A stretch of DNA of 64,000 nucleotides from Candidatus Nealsonbacteria bacterium (GCA_030601865.1 JAUWAW010000001.1:46433-110432); one strand, 5' to 3'; counted from the first letter of the stretch, positions 9,457 to 15,521 are shown. Numbers and translations: made by a program. The notes: generated from the sequence alone by a model not told the origin.

Positions 9457-10914
9457 TTAAAGAAGTTGCTTTAATATTTGATTAACCAGTCCCGGGCTGG
9501 CTTTTCCTTTTGTTTGAGCCATAACTTTGCCCACCAGGAATTGTAAGGCGTTTTCTTTTCCCTTTTTATAATCCTCAACTGGTTTTGGGTTTTTATTAAT
9601 AACTTCTTTTATTATTTTTTCAATTTTTTTCTCATCAGTCATTTGTTGCCAGCCCTTTTCTTCAATAATATGGGAAGGGTCTCCTCCAGTGCCAAACATC
9701 TCTTTGAGAACGGTCTTAGCGATTTTGCTTGAAATCTCACCTTTGTAAATCAAAATAATAAACTCAGCAAAATTCTCGGGAGTGATGAGAAAATCCTCGC
9801 CGACAATAGAGGCCCCCTTCAAAAGACCTTGTAGGTCAGTAACAATATAGTTGACAGCCAATTGGGTGAACTTTTTAGTTTGCTTAATCTTTTCAATCTT
9901 TGCCCAGTTGTCCAGTTCAGACATAACTTTCTCAAGATATTCGCCCAAATTTTTATTAAAAACAAAAATTTCAATTTCCTCATCTTTGAGCGCGTATTCT
10001 CTTTTGAAACGTTCTCTACGGGACTGAGGCAATTCAGGAATTTCTGCTTTAATTTCATTGATAAAATCTTCTTCAAGATGAAGCGGAGGAAGGTTAGGTT
10101 CTGGAGCATGCAGGTCTTCCGTGGAAAACATACCACCTCCTTTTTTTCTCTGAGAAAAAGTCATTCCTTTTTCATCGTCCCATCCTCTTGTTTCGGGAAG
10201 CACTTTTTTACCCTTTTTCAAGAGTTCTCTTTGTCTTTCAATCTCAAATTCTGTTGCTTTTTCTGCTGCCCGGAAAGAATTTAAATTTTTAATCTCTACC
10301 TTTGTTCCTAATTTTTTACTGCCTTTCAGCGCCATTGAGATATTTACCTCCACCCTCATCTGACCTTTTTCCATATTAGCTTCAGAGACATTTAAGTATC
10401 TTAAGAGTATTTGCAATTCTTGGGCGAATTTCCTTGCTTCTCTTGCTGAACTAATATCGGGCTCTGTCACTAATTCTATAAGGGGTATCCCAGCTCGATT
10501 AAAATTAACTAAAGAATAATCTTCTTTATGGATTAACGTCCCCACATCTTCTTCTAAATGGAGTTCATGGATTCGTATTTTCTTAGCATCAATTTTTAAA
10601 AAACCATTCTTGCCCAAAGGAGAAATATCTTTACTTATTTGGTATCCTTTAGGTAAATCTGGATAGAAATAAAGCTTGCGAAAGAATTCGGACTTTCTAA
10701 CAATCTCACAATTCAGAGCTAGAGCAGTTTTAACTATCTTTTTCACCGTTTCTTTATTGAGAACCGGAAGCACTCCTGGGTGACCCATACAAATCGGACA
10801 AATATTGACATTGGCATGACTTTCGTTAACGTTATTCAGGCAAGAACAAAACATTTTGCTCTTGGTATTAAGTTCTATATGTATTTCTAAGCCAATTGTT
10901 GGTTGATAGTTCAT
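9457..10914 (-). CDS. gatB: Asp/Glu-tRNA(Asn/Gln) amidotransferase subunit B
   Basis: 485 aa; MNYQPTIGLEIHIELNTKSKMFCSC start and a C-terminal GatB/YqeY domain. Confidence 0.93.
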   Translation of the reverse strand: MNYQPTIGLEIHIELNTKSKMFCSCLNNVNESHANVNICPICMGHPGVLPVLNKETVKKIVKTALALNCEIVRKSEFFRKLYFYPDLPKGYQISKDISPLGKNGFLKIDAKKIRIHELHLEEDVGTLIHKEDYSLVNFNRAGIPLIELVTEPDISSAREARKFAQELQILLRYLNVSEANMEKGQMRVEVNISMALKGSKKLGTKVEIKNLNSFRAAEKATEFEIERQRELLKKGKKVLPETRGWDDEKGMTFSQRKKGGGMFSTEDLHAPEPNLPPLHLEEDFINEIKAEIPELPQSRRERFKREYALKDEEIEIFVFNKNLGEYLEKVMSELDNWAKIEKIKQTKKFTQLAVNYIVTDLQGLLKGASIVGEDFLITPENFAEFIILIYKGEISSKIAKTVLKEMFGTGGDPSHIIEEKGWQQMTDEKKIEKIIKEVINKNPKPVEDYKKGKENALQFLVGKVMAQTKGKASPGLVNQILKQLL

Positions 10915-11561
10915 GTTTCCTTTATTATTTCAACACCGGAGCTAGTCCCGATAATATCAGCGCCGGCTTTGACCATGGCTTTGAGGTCTTTTAAGCTTTT
11001 AATTTTTCCTGCTGCTTTGATTAAAAGCCCTGGCACTGCTTTTTTCATAATGGCTAAGTGTCTGGCTTTTTCTTTTAGTTCTCTGTGTTCTAAAGGGTCT
11101 TTAAAGGTGGCTGTTTTAACGCAAATAGCGCCTGCTTTTTTAACAATTTGTGAGGCCTTTTTTATTTCTTCTTCAGTTAAATAGCCCGAACCAATAATCA
11201 CTTTAGTGGACAGAATTTTACAAAGCCCTTTTAGATCTTTCAAAACTTTGTCGTATCTTTCGTACTTCAAGTCAACAATATTCATCACCACATCTAATTC
11301 ATCAGCCCCGTCATTCTTTGCTTTTTGGCACATTTTTACTCTCTTTTGATGCGCGCTTTGACCCATTGGCGGGTCAATTAAAACAACAATTTTAATATCG
11401 GTATCTTTCAACTCCTTCTTCACCAACCCCACCCTTTCTGGATTAATACAAACACTCCGAAAACCGTATTTTTTAGCTTCCTGGCAAGTTTTTTTTATTG
11501 CTTTAGCCGTCGCCAACCGTTTTATATTCGTATGGTCAATAAGTTTTGCTATGTTTCTCAT
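10911..11561 (-). CDS. deoC: Deoxyribose-phosphate aldolase
   Basis: 216 aa; IDHTNIK, VCINP and GADELDVVMNI motifs, Schiff-base lysine context ICVKTATF; 4-nt overlaps with both neighbours. Confidence 0.85.
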   Translation of the reverse strand: MRNIAKLIDHTNIKRLATAKAIKKTCQEAKKYGFRSVCINPERVGLVKKELKDTDIKIVVLIDPPMGQSAHQKRVKMCQKAKNDGADELDVVMNIVDLKYERYDKVLKDLKGLCKILSTKVIIGSGYLTEEEIKKASQIVKKAGAICVKTATFKDPLEHRELKEKARHLAIMKKAVPGLLIKAAGKIKSLKDLKAMVKAGADIIGTSSGVEIIKET

Positions 11562-12340
11562 GTTAAATTAAACTTGCTTTTCGCCTCTTCATACATATCT
11601 TTATAGATATGCATACTCACAGAAAAATGAGTATATGTTCCCACTGCCACGTCGAGCTCGTCTGCCATATGTTTTTGCAAAGCAGTAAAGGCGTAAGCGT
11701 TCTCAGGCCAGGCATTGTATAAATCATTGGTCTTCATCACCACAAACATATGCAGTTTTCCGTCCACCAATTGAGGATAGGCCAAAAGCAGACAGGGAGA
11801 AGATGTATCCTCTCTTTTGGGACCAAACTTCATTAAATCTCTAAAAGGAATCCAGGTGTGCATCACCACTGTTCGACGAGTTGGATCTTTTTTTAAGATT
11901 TGAATTGCTTTATCTACCTGGTCAATACGTTGAACCACGCACTTGCCATCAGGAGAAATCTTCTTTACTGCTGTCGCCAATTCCTCATCAGAATCTGTAA
12001 CACTCGGCAACCAAGCCCTTACTTTACAGTCTGGATAACAACGAAGCCGAGAATAATAAGTGTAATCAAAACTGTTTTCTTGCTCTTTTCCTGAACCGTG
12101 TATTAATTTCTTGGCATACTCATCAGCTTGTTCCCGGTTGGCATTAGCCTTTGAAGAAAGCCTGGGCTCGGAAAAAGGTTCTGAAACCTTTATCATTAAA
12201 GGTAGGTCTTTTGTTTCTATTTTGTATTCCGGGGCCTGGACGTACCTATCATGACCTTGCTTCATTACTAAGACACAGGCCTTTTCCCAGGCCTCGCCTA
12301 ACGTTTTTGCTTCAATTATTGTTGTATTGTACATAAGCAC
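11558..12340 (-). CDS. Thymidylate synthase ThyA-like, archaeal-type divergent form
   Basis: 260 aa. TRRTVVMHTW matches the RR motif; SPCLLLAY holds the catalytic Cys; KTNDLYNAWPENAYAF matches RSxD...PFN with Asn retained; MHIYKDMY matches HxY. Confidence 0.75.
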   Translation of the reverse strand: MLMYNTTIIEAKTLGEAWEKACVLVMKQGHDRYVQAPEYKIETKDLPLMIKVSEPFSEPRLSSKANANREQADEYAKKLIHGSGKEQENSFDYTYYSRLRCYPDCKVRAWLPSVTDSDEELATAVKKISPDGKCVVQRIDQVDKAIQILKKDPTRRTVVMHTWIPFRDLMKFGPKREDTSSPCLLLAYPQLVDGKLHMFVVMKTNDLYNAWPENAYAFTALQKHMADELDVAVGTYTHFSVSMHIYKDMYEEAKSKFNLT

Positions 12341-12365
12341 TTTGCTAAGCTTTTAATTTTTTACT

Positions 12366-13250
12366 TTAGTCGTGCCAGCCGTATTCGTCGGCTGACTCGT
12401 ATTCGTCGGCTGACTCTTGGTTTTCTTTCTCGACCTTTTTGATGAACAGCTTCTGGTCCTGTTCATAATCTAAGCCATTCTTGAGAGCTATTTCAGCCTT
12501 CTGAAGCTCCCGGCCCAAATACATAGCATGTTCCTTGGTCTGTTGGAAATCACCGATTAAGTCAAGATTGACTATTGTTTTACAAATACGTTCTGCTGAA
12601 TCTCCTGTTATTTTACATTTTAATTTATTGTCTTGGAAATGTTCAACGATTATCTTATTCCTTTCTTTATTAATTAAAACAACAAAGAATCCTTTTGGGT
12701 CAGGTATCCAGTCAGGGCAGGAATGAGCTTCTATTTCTGCTACTTTCTCAATTTTCAAAACCTTTGGAGAAAACTCGCTGGGTTTGGTTTGCAAAAGCTT
12801 ATCAATCACTTCTTCAATTTTCTTACCGTCCCTCTCACCTACCATATTGACAGGTGAAATCTGTTTTCTGAATTGTTCAATCAGTTCTTTATCAATACCT
12901 TTTAGATAGGACATATTGCCTTTGGCTCCGATAATCATTTTATCATTGTCTATACCGCTTTTTACAAGACATTCTATTGCTTGAGAGACAAAATGACCTT
13001 TGGAAATTTTCCCGCAAAGAATCAAATACCTGATATTGGGATTGGAAACTATGTTTTGGATTATTTTTTCTATGCCGATGTTCTCTGTAACACATTTACC
13101 CCAGATTGCTACTTTCTGAGGACTGATTTTTATTTCATCAATACTAGCATTAGTGCAAACAGCCACTGGCGAAATTTTATTGCCCACCTCGTATCTTCCC
13201 TGAACTGGCGGCCAATTTTGCAGCTTGCTTTCCATATTGATAAGTCGCAC
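12366..13250 (-). CDS. MtrA-like (tetrahydromethanopterin S-methyltransferase subunit A-like, corrinoid-type) domain fused to a DUF4346-like C-terminal domain
   Basis: NWPPVQGRYEVGN..SPVAVCT...TENIGIEKIIQNIVSNPNIRYLILCGKISKGHFVSQA...IIGAKG aligns closely with archaeal MtrA as I recall it, including the GH histidine. C-terminal DPKGFFVV...HAMYLGRELQKAE resembles DUF4346. Likely start is the ATG at 13235 (MESKLQNW). Confidence 0.8.
   Translation of the reverse strand: MRLINMESKLQNWPPVQGRYEVGNKISPVAVCTNASIDEIKISPQKVAIWGKCVTENIGIEKIIQNIVSNPNIRYLILCGKISKGHFVSQAIECLVKSGIDNDKMIIGAKGNMSYLKGIDKELIEQFRKQISPVNMVGERDGKKIEEVIDKLLQTKPSEFSPKVLKIEKVAEIEAHSCPDWIPDPKGFFVVLINKERNKIIVEHFQDNKLKCKITGDSAERICKTIVNLDLIGDFQQTKEHAMYLGRELQKAEIALKNGLDYEQDQKLFIKKVEKENQESADEYESADEYGWHD
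12381..12416. repeat. Perfect 18-bp tandem duplication at the 3' end of the MtrA-like gene
   Basis: gtattcgtcggctgactc x2, encoding ESADEY-ESADEY. Confidence 0.9.
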
Positions 13251-13287
13251 TAACAGTGCGACGGGTCTGTCGCACTGTTAGTGCGAC
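13244..13287. repeat. Double hairpin / 19-bp-arm palindrome at the dcd stop / MtrA-like start junction
   Basis: gtcgcactaacagtgcgac-gggtct-gtcgcactgttagtgcgac; each arm is itself an 8-bp hairpin; supplies the last ~13 codons of dcd. Confidence 0.85.
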
Positions 13288-13864
13288 AATTAGGCCTAAA
13301 TTCTTGGTTTATTTTGCTGGCTTGAGGAGATTCCTGTTTATCGTATTTCTGAGCTTTTTTTTCTGAATAGGAAACCTCGCAAGGACCAGAAAGCGTCTCA
13401 AAAGTCAAGGCGCAAACCCGCATCCCGGCATATAAAATAATGGGCATAATTCCCAAATTCCCCAATTCCATCACTGCTTTTCCCTGCCAACCAGGGTCAA
13501 AGCGAGCGGCGGTTGAATGAACTATCATTCCCAACCTACCCAAAGAACTTCTACCATCCAGTCTTGCCATTATATCATTGGGTAAAATTATTTCTTCTTT
13601 TGTTATAGCAATCACAAATTCTTTTGATTGCAAGATAAAAGGAGCTCCATCTTCTATTTTTACTTCCTCCATTAATTTTTCGAAATTGATATCTCTTTTA
13701 AGGTCTAAATAGGGATATTGAGAGGGCTTAAAAGTTTTAAAAATATTGCCTAAATGTAAATCTAAGGAACAAGGTCCTAATTGCTTTTCAAAATCGGGCT
13801 CAGGCTTGATTGTGATTTTTCCTTCCCTAATATATTTTTTTATGTCTTTGTCTGAGAGAATCAT
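13250..13864 (-). CDS. dcd: dCTP deaminase
   Basis: 204 aa; MILSDKDIKKYI, GPCSLDLHLGN, RLDGRSSLGRLG and FDPGWQG motifs of the dUTPase-fold Dcd family. The C-terminal tail RPNCRTNSATDPSHC is encoded by the palindrome. Confidence 0.9.
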   Translation of the reverse strand: MILSDKDIKKYIREGKITIKPEPDFEKQLGPCSLDLHLGNIFKTFKPSQYPYLDLKRDINFEKLMEEVKIEDGAPFILQSKEFVIAITKEEIILPNDIMARLDGRSSLGRLGMIVHSTAARFDPGWQGKAVMELGNLGIMPIILYAGMRVCALTFETLSGPCEVSYSEKKAQKYDKQESPQASKINQEFRPNCRTNSATDPSHC

Positions 13865-13920
13865 TGATGTTTAAGACAGAAAAATTAGTCGTTGTTTTAT
13901 CATAGCACATTTTTGGAAAT

Positions 13921-13959
13921 AAAAAAAATGGAAGGGGCCTTGTTAGACAAGACACCTTC
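13921..13959 (-). terminator. Intrinsic terminator after the MazG-like gene
   Basis: Minus strand gaaggtgtcttg-tctaa-caaggccccttc followed by a T8 run. Confidence 0.5.
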
Positions 13960-14012
13960 TTGTGAATTGTGGATATTCTCAGATCATTCCTCCTTTTCAC
14001 TACCTCCTCTCA

Positions 14013-14690
14013 TTAGATAACCGGGCATTGGCATTTCTCTTTGAGACAGGTCCGGCATTTTCCAGGATAGGTTTGCCAAGTGACTTCGGAAAGAGATATC
14101 TGCAGTTTATTGCAAGCAGCAACAAGCCAGGCAAAAGCATCAGCCAATTCGGCCTCCAATTCTGCTCTCGGGCCTAATCTAAAGGCTCGGCTTATTTCCC
14201 CTATCTCTTCAAAAAGATGAAACCATATTTGGACTTGGAATTTTATTTTATTCACTCGTCCATAAATCCTTTCAAACATCTGCTGCCAACCGTCAAGGAT
14301 AAAGGGCTTTTGTTTCATTCTGTTCCTGTATTTCTCCAATAGTTCTCTATCGTCTTTGTATTTCAGTTCTTGAGAAATACAAGTACAGTTCTTTTCCTGT
14401 AAACAGTAAGGGCAGACACTCGGATATTTGTGCCAGACGGCATTCTCCAAATCAATCCCTGTTGGCTCGCAAGTATTGCAAAAGGCCAATAGCCAACCGA
14501 AAACATCCGGGATATTCTTTACCACACTTTCTCTGTCTTCCTTGCGCAGATGTTCAGCCAGTTCAGCCATCTCCTCAATAACATGAAGCAAGATATCAGA
14601 GGGACTGTAAATTTCGTCATTCCTTGCTCCATAAATTGAAAAAAATAACCCTTGCCATTGTCTAATACTTTGCGGTTTTTCCATCTCCAC
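14013..14690 (-). CDS. Tandem (internally duplicated) MazG-like nucleoside triphosphate pyrophosphohydrolase with two Cys4 knuckles
   Basis: 225 aa. Both halves share WQxxFxxIYG, EExxE (EEMAELAE / EEIGEISR), xxDxFxWL and W..YP..C..C....C.C (YPSVCPYCLQEKNCTC / YPGKCRTCLKEKCQC). Confidence 0.7.
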   Translation of the reverse strand: MEMEKPQSIRQWQGLFFSIYGARNDEIYSPSDILLHVIEEMAELAEHLRKEDRESVVKNIPDVFGWLLAFCNTCEPTGIDLENAVWHKYPSVCPYCLQEKNCTCISQELKYKDDRELLEKYRNRMKQKPFILDGWQQMFERIYGRVNKIKFQVQIWFHLFEEIGEISRAFRLGPRAELEAELADAFAWLVAACNKLQISLSEVTWQTYPGKCRTCLKEKCQCPVI

Positions 14691-14799
14691 ACTCCTTTCG
14701 TTTAAGTTAAAGAACTATGTTACAATCCTTTCGCACTGCGACCAAAGAGTACAAATTGCTACATTACTTTTAAGATTCCCCAGAACCAGCAAGTTCTTT

Positions 14800-15159
14800 T
14801 TATAAATTGGCCACTTCATTTTTTACCTCTAATTGTCGCCGAACAAGAAACGCAAAAAGCAGAAAATAACGTTCAAGGTCTTTAAGGGAACTCTGATAAT
14901 TCTTTCCCCCAAAAACAGCGTCGCAGAACACTTCCCGCACTCTTGCAATCTCCCGAAGACGACCACGCCAGCGAGAATCCGCAAGAGTCAGATCGAAGAG
15001 TTCAAGAGCTCTGTCAACTGCGCCCCAAAAAATATTTTTGTCTTTTCCTTGCCATTTACGCGCTCGTGTTACTTCACTACCAATATTTGCCAATTGCTCT
15101 GCCAAAGAAAGCTGAAACCATCTATTTTTAGCTAACTCTTTGTGAAAAAGTTTCTTCAT
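14800..15159 (-). CDS. Hypothetical helical protein
   Basis: 119-aa ORF, 4-nt overlap with the upstream DUF5674-like gene; no family recognised. Confidence 0.55.
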   Translation of the reverse strand: MKKLFHKELAKNRWFQLSLAEQLANIGSEVTRARKWQGKDKNIFWGAVDRALELFDLTLADSRWRGRLREIARVREVFCDAVFGGKNYQSSLKDLERYFLLFAFLVRRQLEVKNEVANL

Positions 15160-15521
15160 CTTGATACGAGTTTTTCTACAATTTTTCTAATTTTTTCTTG
15201 AATCACGGGATTATCCACCTCTCGGGAGCGATTCCCAAAAGAGGGCTTCAGATTAATCACAGAATCAATCTCAATCCAGTCATTACCCGTTTTCTCAGGA
15301 TATAGGTTAATACCCCAGGTATGCTCTCTCTTTGAGTTTTCTTGCTCCATAAGAGAGACCTCTTCATCAGAGTGAAGTTCTCCTCCAACTGCCATAATTC
15401 CTTGCTCTACATCTACCACTGCCTTTACTAAATCACCGAACTGCTCTTTGGCAATACGTTTCAATTCTTCTCGTTTTATTGAATCTTTAATAATTATTAT
15501 TGGCATATATAATTTTCCCAA
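15156..15521 (-). CDS. DUF5674-like protein
   Basis: 121 aa; VDVEQGIMAVGGELHSDEE...WGINLYPE pattern recalled for DUF5674 family proteins. Confidence 0.6.
   Translation of the reverse strand: MGKLYMPIIIIKDSIKREELKRIAKEQFGDLVKAVVDVEQGIMAVGGELHSDEEVSLMEQENSKREHTWGINLYPEKTGNDWIEIDSVINLKPSFGNRSREVDNPVIQEKIRKIVEKLVSR

Follow-up and report, generated by a model that had tools for sequence, protein, structure and literature searches.

A possible corrinoid-dependent route to thymidylate: an MtrA-type protein paired with a divergent ThyA-like protein in CPR and DPANN genomes

Thymidylate synthesis is essential for DNA and, to our knowledge, only two enzyme solutions to it exist, ThyA and ThyX; we know of no described ThyA that travels with a corrinoid protein, as the one reported here does. 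Archaeal ThyA enzymes are hardly characterised biochemically (PMC9931769, PMC9012536). In the methanogen corrinoid protein MtrA the cobalt ligand is His84, hydrogen-bonded to Glu54, and MtrH transfers methyl from methyl-pterin to the corrinoid of MtrA (PMC4915002); the function of MtrA and MtrAH outside methanogens has been called unclear (PMC4915002, PMC9635834, PMC11291895). Core methionine synthases use methylcobalamin in vitro, and MtrA is the predicted methyl donor to one of them, MesA (PMC7857596). Here we analyse a 64-kb stretch, hereafter the window, of a Candidatus Nealsonbacteria bacterium genome (GCA_030601865.1, JAUWAW010000001.1:46433-110432), whose minus strand encodes in succession a dCTP deaminase (dcd), an MtrA-like protein ending in a DUF4346 domain and a divergent ThyA-like protein. 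We regard it as very probable that the last two form one functional unit in thymidylate synthesis. More tentatively, at a probability of about 0.45, we propose that they represent a third mechanistic class of thymidylate synthase in bacteria of the Candidate Phyla Radiation (CPR) and DPANN archaea, in which a ThyA fold would use methyl-cob(III)amide held on an MtrA-type protein, with no flavin and no pterin oxidation. Full-text searching found no literature link between either MtrA or DUF4346 and thymidylate synthesis.

Conservation and fusion of the paired genes

Surveying one genome per GTDB species for the ThyA-like protein yielded 49 loci, about 21 from CPR (67–86% identity) and about 27 from DPANN (51–63%), the latter mostly Aenigmatarchaeota with some Nanoarchaeota. 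All six-frame open reading frames (ORFs) of these loci were searched with seed proteins, up to ~20 kb being readable for each related locus. An ORF combining MtrA and DUF4346 lies within 3 kb upstream of the ThyA-like gene, on the same strand and usually adjacent, in 39 of the 42 loci with enough upstream DNA; L051, L054 and L055 have the ThyA-like gene without it. Approaching from the MtrA-like side, a metagenome scan gave 80 loci, 50 of them with at least 900 nt downstream, and the ThyA-like gene is next downstream of MtrA–DUF4346 in 49 of these 50. The adjacency thus extends across CPR and DPANN, which matters since the preliminary description of this locus had set its occurrence beyond this one genome as a test beforehand. 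Deoxynucleotide genes surround the pair: dcd stands upstream of the MtrA-like gene in CPR loci and downstream of the ThyA-like gene in DPANN loci, and thymidylate kinase (tmk), thymidine kinase, ribonucleotide reductase and deoC often lie close by, with tmk following the ThyA-like gene in many loci. The order with deoC and gatB after the ThyA-like gene, described earlier for this locus, recurs in most CPR loci and in none from DPANN, so that its conservation is confined to CPR.

The sole exception in the metagenome scan (L132, 3517–6777) places MtrA–DUF4346 directly after Cdc6/Orc1 and a DNA polymerase D small-subunit-like gene, a DNA-replication context, and in L054 (8380–9399) a DUF362 protein is encoded upstream of the ThyA-like gene, with dcd after it.

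The same domains are also joined in single proteins. Fusions of dcd, MtrA and DUF4346 (480–511 aa) occur in Paceibacteria (proteins P0105, P0107–P0115, P0117, P0118 and P0120; loci L001, L024, L025, L027, L028, L095, L097–L099 and L101–L104), and at least 25 fusions are found among the 150 best ThyA-like representative clusters. ThyA itself is joined in the order MtrA–DUF4346–ThyA (P0362, P0364, P0365) or MtrA–ThyA–DUF4346 (at least 17 representative clusters, for example P0385, P0413 and P0409); further forms are ThyA–DUF4346, MtrA–ThyA (P0439) and MtrA–ThyA–DUF4346–dCMP deaminase (P0399). Two named fusion members are annotated as 'thymidylate synthase' of Nanoarchaeota or of an 'archaeon'. 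Because the three domains are fused in two orders, and to both dcd and dCMP deaminase, these proteins are strong evidence that MtrA, DUF4346 and ThyA work together on a deoxyuridine nucleotide.

Recurring in 39 of 42 independent loci in one survey and 49 of 50 in the other, as well as in gene fusions, the dcd/MtrA-like/ThyA-like arrangement is confirmed to be far beyond chance. Conserved synteny, fusions and invariant ligand residues speak against a chance juxtaposition or a decaying remnant of methanogenesis. The earlier proposal, in which the MtrA–DUF4346 protein works as a partner to the divergent ThyA, is therefore supported by the conserved adjacency, by the fusions and by an invariant or near-invariant His/Glu pair. 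The additional suggestion that the neighbouring MazG-like gene performs the dUTP-to-dUMP step found no comparative backing: among surveyed loci a MazG gene accompanies the module nowhere but in the window and in L003, whose sequence is identical, and we do not count it as part of the module.

Features of the two proteins

The MtrA-like domain is ~40–50% identical to the solved MtrA structures 5LAA, 5L8X and 8Q3V and shares their fold (alignment E 1e-37 for 5LAA and 5L8X). The block TEN...GIEK...SNPNIR...LCG...GH aligns with 5LAA and 5L8X, as the preliminary description had it; the catalytic Cys, the dUMP-specifying Asn and the replacement of RSxD by KTND that it assigned to the ThyA-like protein are also right by alignment. 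Across 113 distinct clade sequences from CPR and DPANN, conservation is complete or almost complete for His86, Glu56 and Gly85 and for the motifs SNPNIR and LCG. We think it likely that the domain would bind a cobamide. The protein misses the equivalog cut-off of TIGR01111 (142 versus 249.15) and has no transmembrane helix, its C terminus consisting of DUF4346 and a disordered tail.

A linker without predicted secondary structure (residues 155–187) leads from MtrA to DUF4346, which is modelled as three strands and two helices with a predicted local distance difference test (pLDDT) score above 90, and for which we found no solved structural relative. Elsewhere DUF4346 is fused after ThyA, stands alone beside MtrH or core MetE, or forms the end of TIGR00284 pterin-barrel proteins. 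We infer that the domain docks the corrinoid domain onto methyltransferase partners. W292 and D294 of the tail are nearly invariant in the homologue alignment. Over loci L012–L058, a terminus ...[DE]EY[GD]W[FHY]D (variant ...DEFGW) closes almost all CPR homologues, some DPANN homologues end in ...G[ML][CSH]R[VI]F and other DPANN proteins are tailless. These lineage-specific C-terminal tails look like docking peptides.

A standalone DUF4346 protein of 128 aa was also seen in two marine metagenome contigs with cyanobacterial-looking neighbour genes (L009/L010, 2957–6387), just after genes for 6-pyruvoyl-tetrahydropterin synthase (PTPS), RibD_C and a FemAB-like protein; neither MtrA nor a ThyA-like protein was detected nearby. 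DUF4346 therefore also occurs among pterin-related genes where no corrinoid protein is adjacent.

The ThyA-like protein is recognised by PF00303 (50.2 bits versus a cut-off of 24.3), the match being limited to its C-terminal half (residues 135–256). It had been called an archaeal-type ThyA, and the methanogen-type model TIGR03283 is indeed its best curated match; it nevertheless scores below that cut-off (136.5 versus 174.55 bits), and further below that of the bacterial-type TIGR03284 (32.8 versus 108.35), and belongs to a separate, tight clade, with only 10 of 5,833 ThyA-family representatives reaching E ≤ 1e-30 to it. Homologues of the ThyA-like protein are 80–88% identical, against 60–68% for those of the MtrA-like protein, which places the former under strong constraint. 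Its AlphaFold2 model (pLDDT 87, predicted template-modelling (pTM) score 0.87) is a thymidylate synthase fold, with a Foldseek probability of 1.0 to many ThyA structures at template-modelling (TM) scores of ~0.65–0.7; the top structural matches are a flavin-dependent dCMP hydroxylase (9IQC and 9IQU, Foldseek probability 1.0).

The active site is conserved in part. Cys183, equivalent to the catalytic Cys146 of Escherichia coli ThyA, is invariant in CPR, in DPANN and in all fusion proteins. Equivalents of R126/R127 (R155/R156), the Arg pair through which the partner subunit binds dUMP, of D169 (Asp206) and of the sugar-site residue Y209 (Tyr246) are kept, C183, R155/R156, N214 and Y246 being invariant; position 244, for the sugar-site His, is His or Gln within the clade, and Tyr95 is probably the equivalent of Y94. 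The KTND motif and N214 are invariant in the clade, leaving the Asp as the one retained residue of RSxD; the full R-S-x-D persists in other archaeal-type ThyA and in the divergent fusions. D169 of E. coli ThyA contacts the pterin ring, and in the ThyA family a residue of the Asn177 type fits uracil and not cytosine. By hhalign only residues 130–252 can be aligned to E. coli ThyA (104–215). The C-terminal ~49 residues of the E. coli enzyme (216–264) have no counterpart; the N-terminal half matches canonical ThyA weakly in MAFFT and gives no hhalign alignment. Of the folate-binding elements there, Glu58 and the Trp80/Trp83 segment, neither Glu58 nor Trp80 could be matched to a residue of the ThyA-like protein. 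In ThyA the N-terminal half and the C-terminal segment form much of the folate site, and these differences would speak for the methyl-transfer scheme set out below.

Two further observations concern this family. Invariant Cys134 (codon 11939–11941) and Cys105 (12026–12028) lie in a clade-specific insert of ~30 residues found in CPR and DPANN; the two residues, which the divergent fusions and the majority of other archaeal-type ThyA lack, form a possible metal site or redox pair. Among archaeal-type representatives, P0467, P0482 and P0424 carry inteins (Intein_splicing, in one case also LAGLIDADG), inserted into the ThyA domain past position ~150.

A proposed route to thymidylate and its rivals

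We give about an even chance to a scheme in which methyl passes from the corrinoid protein to dUMP activated by the catalytic Cys, with DUF4346 and the tail as its dock. The dcd product would be a deoxyuridine nucleotide for the module, dUTP if the enzyme is monofunctional and dUMP if it is bifunctional. Once dUMP is bound by the ThyA-like protein, Cys183 would add to C6, a step common to the whole ThyA family, and make C5 nucleophilic. The MtrA-type domain would carry a cobamide in the His-on state, its lower ligand being His86, and would alternate between Co(I) and methyl-Co(III) and swing to present the methyl to C5. Removal of the C5 proton, for which Tyr95 is a candidate base, and elimination of Cys183 would then give dTMP and Co(I), DUF4346 and the conserved C-terminal tail docking the flexibly linked corrinoid domain on its partner throughout. 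As pterin would never be oxidised along this path, no dihydrofolate reductase (DHFR) would be needed. Direct methyl transfer to dUMP is our inference; dTMP as the product would fit both the tmk genes next to the ThyA-like gene and the preference of Asn214 for uracil.

Three DPANN loci suggest how the corrinoid could be charged. L052, whose genes were verified with Pfam, reads methylene-pterin reductase (MTHFR), one further gene, a divergently transcribed serine hydroxymethyltransferase (SHMT) gene, MtrA, MtrH, DUF4346, ThyA-like and dcd, the last five tightly packed; L050 has the same order minus dcd; and L007 reads SHMT, an MtrA+MtrH fusion, DUF4346, ThyA-like and dcd. SHMT is thus near in all three and MTHFR in two; SHMT also stands beside the operon in L004. 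In these relatives MtrH would re-methylate the corrinoid from methyl-pterin, completing a route from serine to methylene-pterin (SHMT), methyl-pterin (MTHFR), methyl-Co(III) on MtrA (MtrH) and finally dTMP (ThyA-like). MTHFR converts methylene-pterin to methyl-pterin and would be pointless if ThyA took methylene-pterin directly, so its presence in L050 and L052 favours the methyl route. Operons containing MtrH and MTHFR likewise favour a C1-carrier role of the corrinoid partner over one in electron supply. The ThyA-like gene of L050 and L052 holds the slot, beside MtrH and DUF4346, that a MetE-like gene holds in L008.

That Thermoplasmata locus (L008, 2679–6339; GCA_046498385.1) is an operon of MTHFR, MtrA, MtrH, core MetE (Meth_synt_2) and DUF4346, the last as a separate small gene. 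By its content it resembles a complete methionine synthase system that depends on corrinoid, here in a non-methanogen.

A source of cobamide is suggested by a second association. In about half of the CPR loci (L001, L002/L020, L014, L015, L021, L022, L025, L027, L028 and many of L061–L104), a DUF4430 protein and a DUF6580 membrane protein are encoded directly upstream of dcd or of the operon. DUF4430 is the C-terminal domain of transcobalamins (PMC4350170), and on that ground the pair fits a candidate cobamide uptake system for organisms unable to make B12. Neither DUF4430 nor DUF6580 gave a PDB or NCBIfam match. The pair is not in the window, where DUF5674, a 119-aa ORF and the MazG-like gene occupy that position.

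Several points weigh against direct methyl transfer. No MtrH, MTHFR or other evident corrinoid loader is encoded in the window or in nearly all CPR loci (10–64 kb). No reductive activase, for which the search included no seed sequence, was noticed in the operons, nor is an additional conserved gene evident there. Asp206 is invariant, as expected if pterin still binds the ThyA-like protein, and the SHMT beside L004 and L007 would serve a classical methylene-pterin route equally well. Few enzymes pass methyl from methyl-Co(III) to a carbon nucleophile by a polar route, TsrM being the one precedent known to us. In the divergent MtrA–ThyA–DUF4346 fusions the His/Glu ligand pair is gone, though the SNPxIR...G motifs remain; His-on binding of cobamide therefore does not extend to the whole of the wider family, which may use the MtrA domain differently or bind corrinoid His-off.

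Some of these points belong equally to a classical ThyA, in which a methylene-pterin would be both C1 donor and reductant and MtrA–DUF4346 would merely supply or present the pterin, whether because a corrinoid-borne methyl enters the methylene pool through MtrH and a reversed MTHFR, or because DUF4346 is the missing pterin-binding lid. Besides the invariant Asp206 and Asn214 and the SHMT beside the operon in L004, L007, L050 and L052, this explanation draws on the name of DUF4346 as pterin-binding-domain-associated, on its terminal position in DHPS-like and MtrH-like proteins (TIGR00284), on the standalone cyanobacterial copy beside PTPS and RibD_C, and on the many fusions in which it directly follows ThyA, at the site of the canonical C-terminal segment; non-methanogen MtrAH has also been proposed to funnel methyl groups into C1 pools (PMC9635834). 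What a classical enzyme leaves unexplained is why over 100 loci lacking MtrH and MTHFR have a corrinoid domain next to ThyA or joined to it, and why the cobalt ligand pair is so strictly conserved in the clade. No DHFR-like gene turned up in the operons either, though the survey seeds included no DHFR query. We consider this explanation unlikely, if still deserving of serious attention.

The corrinoid might instead be the reductant, the methylene coming from pterin or formaldehyde and cob(I)amide giving two electrons to the exocyclic methylene intermediate, much as FADH2 does in ThyX. Such chemistry would likewise spare DHFR and fit the tight pairing and the fusions, it would account for the retained pterin-contacting Asp206, and the flavin-dependent dCMP hydroxylases at the top of the structural matches (9IQC, 9IQU) illustrate that a ThyA fold can take a redox cofactor. 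MtrA-type proteins, however, are known only as methyl carriers (PMC4915002); each turnover would leave Co(II) or Co(III) and need a low-potential reductase, none of which is conserved in the operons, and MtrH and MTHFR in L050 and L052 would have no role. This we judge improbable. Slightly more improbable still is a different product, for example a dUMP or dCMP hydroxymethylated or otherwise altered at C5, or another substrate altogether, with the corrinoid protein as cofactor carrier. The ThyA-like protein does fall below the NCBIfam cut-offs for both ThyA equivalogs, has Lys for Arg166 in the invariant KTND, and counts the dCMP hydroxylase AfhB and the CMP hydroxymethylase MilA among its best structural matches; against this, Asn214 fits uracil and not cytosine, the genes around it or fused to it are dcd, dCMP deaminase, tmk, thymidine kinase and ribonucleotide reductase, and no other thymidylate synthase was seen, the survey being one of loci and not of whole genomes.

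If the methyl-transfer proposal is true, a corrinoid-partnered ThyA-like protein would add a new thymidylate route, or at least a new obligatory partner, and would explain the source of thymine in many ultra-small symbionts whose cofactor metabolism is minimal. It would assign MtrA and MtrAH homologues outside methanogens, and DUF4346, a concrete function, and predict that CPR and DPANN growth depends on vitamin B12, which could aid cultivation. The C1 donor of archaeal ThyA, a long-standing question, would become directly testable with two small soluble proteins, and the MtrA–ThyA–DUF4346 fusions may bear on that donor in archaeal-type ThyA generally.

The locus in the window and its comparison with known systems

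The module lies in a minus-strand gene run (9457–15521) comprising DUF5674, an unassigned 119-aa ORF, the MazG-like gene, dcd, MtrA–DUF4346, ThyA-like, deoC and gatB, with genes for ribosomal protein L11 and NusG upstream (Table 1). The four genes of the preliminary description were confirmed in place, with Pfam or NCBIfam thresholds passed for dcd, MtrA, DUF4346, PF00303 and deoC; the last, though named in its title, falls beyond the range it gave (11558–13864). The 4-nt overlaps it reported hold at ThyA-like/deoC and deoC/gatB only, and not at the other two of the four junctions: dcd and the MtrA-like gene have 1 nt in common, given the GTG start of the latter, and a spacer of 25–31 nt separates the MtrA-like from the ThyA-like gene. 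For both genes an ATG is the likely start in preference to GTG (13235 for MtrA-like, 12334 for ThyA-like). The presence of deoC next to the module is a deoxynucleotide-metabolism context. The window has a GC content of ~38%, 20 further ORFs examined in it gave housekeeping genes only (the rest of the window including pheS, dnaB, recA, thiI and mnmA), and the closest homologues carry the names Patescibacteria, Parcubacteria or Nealsonbacteria.

Table 1. Genes, domains and key residues of the module and its neighbours (window coordinates)
Feature	Position	Strand	Basis or remark
gatB	9457–10914	-	downstream of deoC
deoC, deoxyribose-phosphate aldolase	10911–11561	-	TIGR00126, 163 bits, equivalog cut-off passed
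ThyA-like, 260 aa from GTG	11558–12340	-	PF00303, TIGR03283
Asn214 codon (= N177)	11699–11701	-	alignments
K203-T204-N205-D206, in place of R166-S167-x-D169	11723–11734	-	alignments
Cys183 codon (E. coli ThyA catalytic Cys146 equivalent)	11792–11794	-	alignments, codon checked
MtrA+DUF4346 protein, 294 aa	12366–13250	-	PF04208 and PF14251
Disordered C-terminal tail, last motif EYGWHD (12369–12386)	12369–12455	-	pLDDT <50 for aa 273–294
DUF4346 (PterinBD-DUF4346) domain, aa 184–265	12456–12701	-	PF14251, 82.8 bits versus 29.6, 3e-23
MtrA-type corrinoid-binding Rossmann domain (predicted), aa 10–168	12747–13223	-	PF04208, 156 bits, Pfam threshold passed
His86 codon	12993–12995	-	aligned to MtrA His84 (5LAA), codon checked
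Glu56 codon	13083–13085	-	aligned to MtrA Glu54, hydrogen-bond partner of the His86 equivalent
dcd (dCTP deaminase)	13250–13864	-	TIGR02274, 189 bits versus cut-off 92.8; PF22769
MazG-like pyrophosphohydrolase, two tandem MazG domains	14013–14690	-	PF03819, two stretches

Two local peculiarities were noted. DUF5674, the 119-aa ORF and the tandem MazG gene (14013–15521) stand between the L11 gene and dcd in this genome only, among the loci examined. A perfect 19-nt hairpin unit (GTCGCAC-TAACA-GTGCGAC) occurs as two inverted copies 6 nt apart at 13244–13287, with no other copy in the window and none expected by chance. The pair sits in a C-terminal extension of the dcd ORF (204 aa, versus 188–199 aa in homologues), overlaps the GTG 'start' of the MtrA-like ORF, and could be either a short repeat that was inserted or a hairpin with a regulatory role.

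Set beside canonical ThyA (EC 2.1.1.45), the ThyA-like protein shares the fold, the catalytic Cys, the Arg-Arg pair, the D169, N177 and Y209 equivalents and a deoxynucleotide gene setting; it departs in having Lys-Thr for Arg166-Ser167, in the Cys105/Cys134 insert and in lacking a 216–264 counterpart. The methanogen-type family TIGR03283 is its best-scoring curated model (8e-40, nearly full length) and is similarly short, without the bacterial C-terminal region, but the ThyA-like protein is ~45 residues longer than the 201-position model, has KTND for RSND and forms its tight CPR/DPANN clade. With ThyX it would have in common dTMP formation without pterin oxidation, an outcome suited to small genomes lacking DHFR, whereas the ThyX fold is unrelated and uses FAD and NADPH, not corrinoid. 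The phage dCMP hydroxylase AfhB (9IQC, 9IQU), at only 18–19% identity, is a ThyA fold re-used with a non-folate cofactor, which there is a flavin and not a corrinoid, acting on dCMP and not dUMP.

The partner resembles MtrA of the methanogen Mtr complex in identity (~40–50%), fold and His/Glu cobalt-ligand network, and in occurring with MtrH in three related loci. Unlike methanogen MtrA it has no transmembrane helix and no mtrB–G neighbours, DUF4346 occupies the place of the membrane-anchoring segment, and the 'EN' of the meander motif GAIPF[YF]xEN is replaced (GAKGNMSYLKG); its partner gene is ThyA-like, where that of methanogen MtrA is MtrE. Source annotations read 'tetrahydromethanopterin S-methyltransferase subunit A', 'thymidylate synthase' or 'dCTP deaminase'. 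Of the carrier, catalytic partner and loading methyltransferase in three-component corrinoid methyltransferase systems, counterparts of the first two are present and adjacent here; a loader such as MtrH is not in the window or the CPR loci but is present in DPANN L007, L050 and L052. A functional parallel is offered by the core methionine synthases MesA and MesB (PMC7857596), small methyltransferases minus the pterin-binding part that take methyl from a corrinoid protein; the Thermoplasmata operon L008 has the L050/L052 layout with core MetE replacing ThyA-like. The acceptor there is a thiol, that of homocysteine, and here would be a carbon of dUMP, and donation from MtrA to MesA is itself only predicted. 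The component families are already known; what would be new is a ThyA-family enzyme with an obligatory corrinoid-protein partner.

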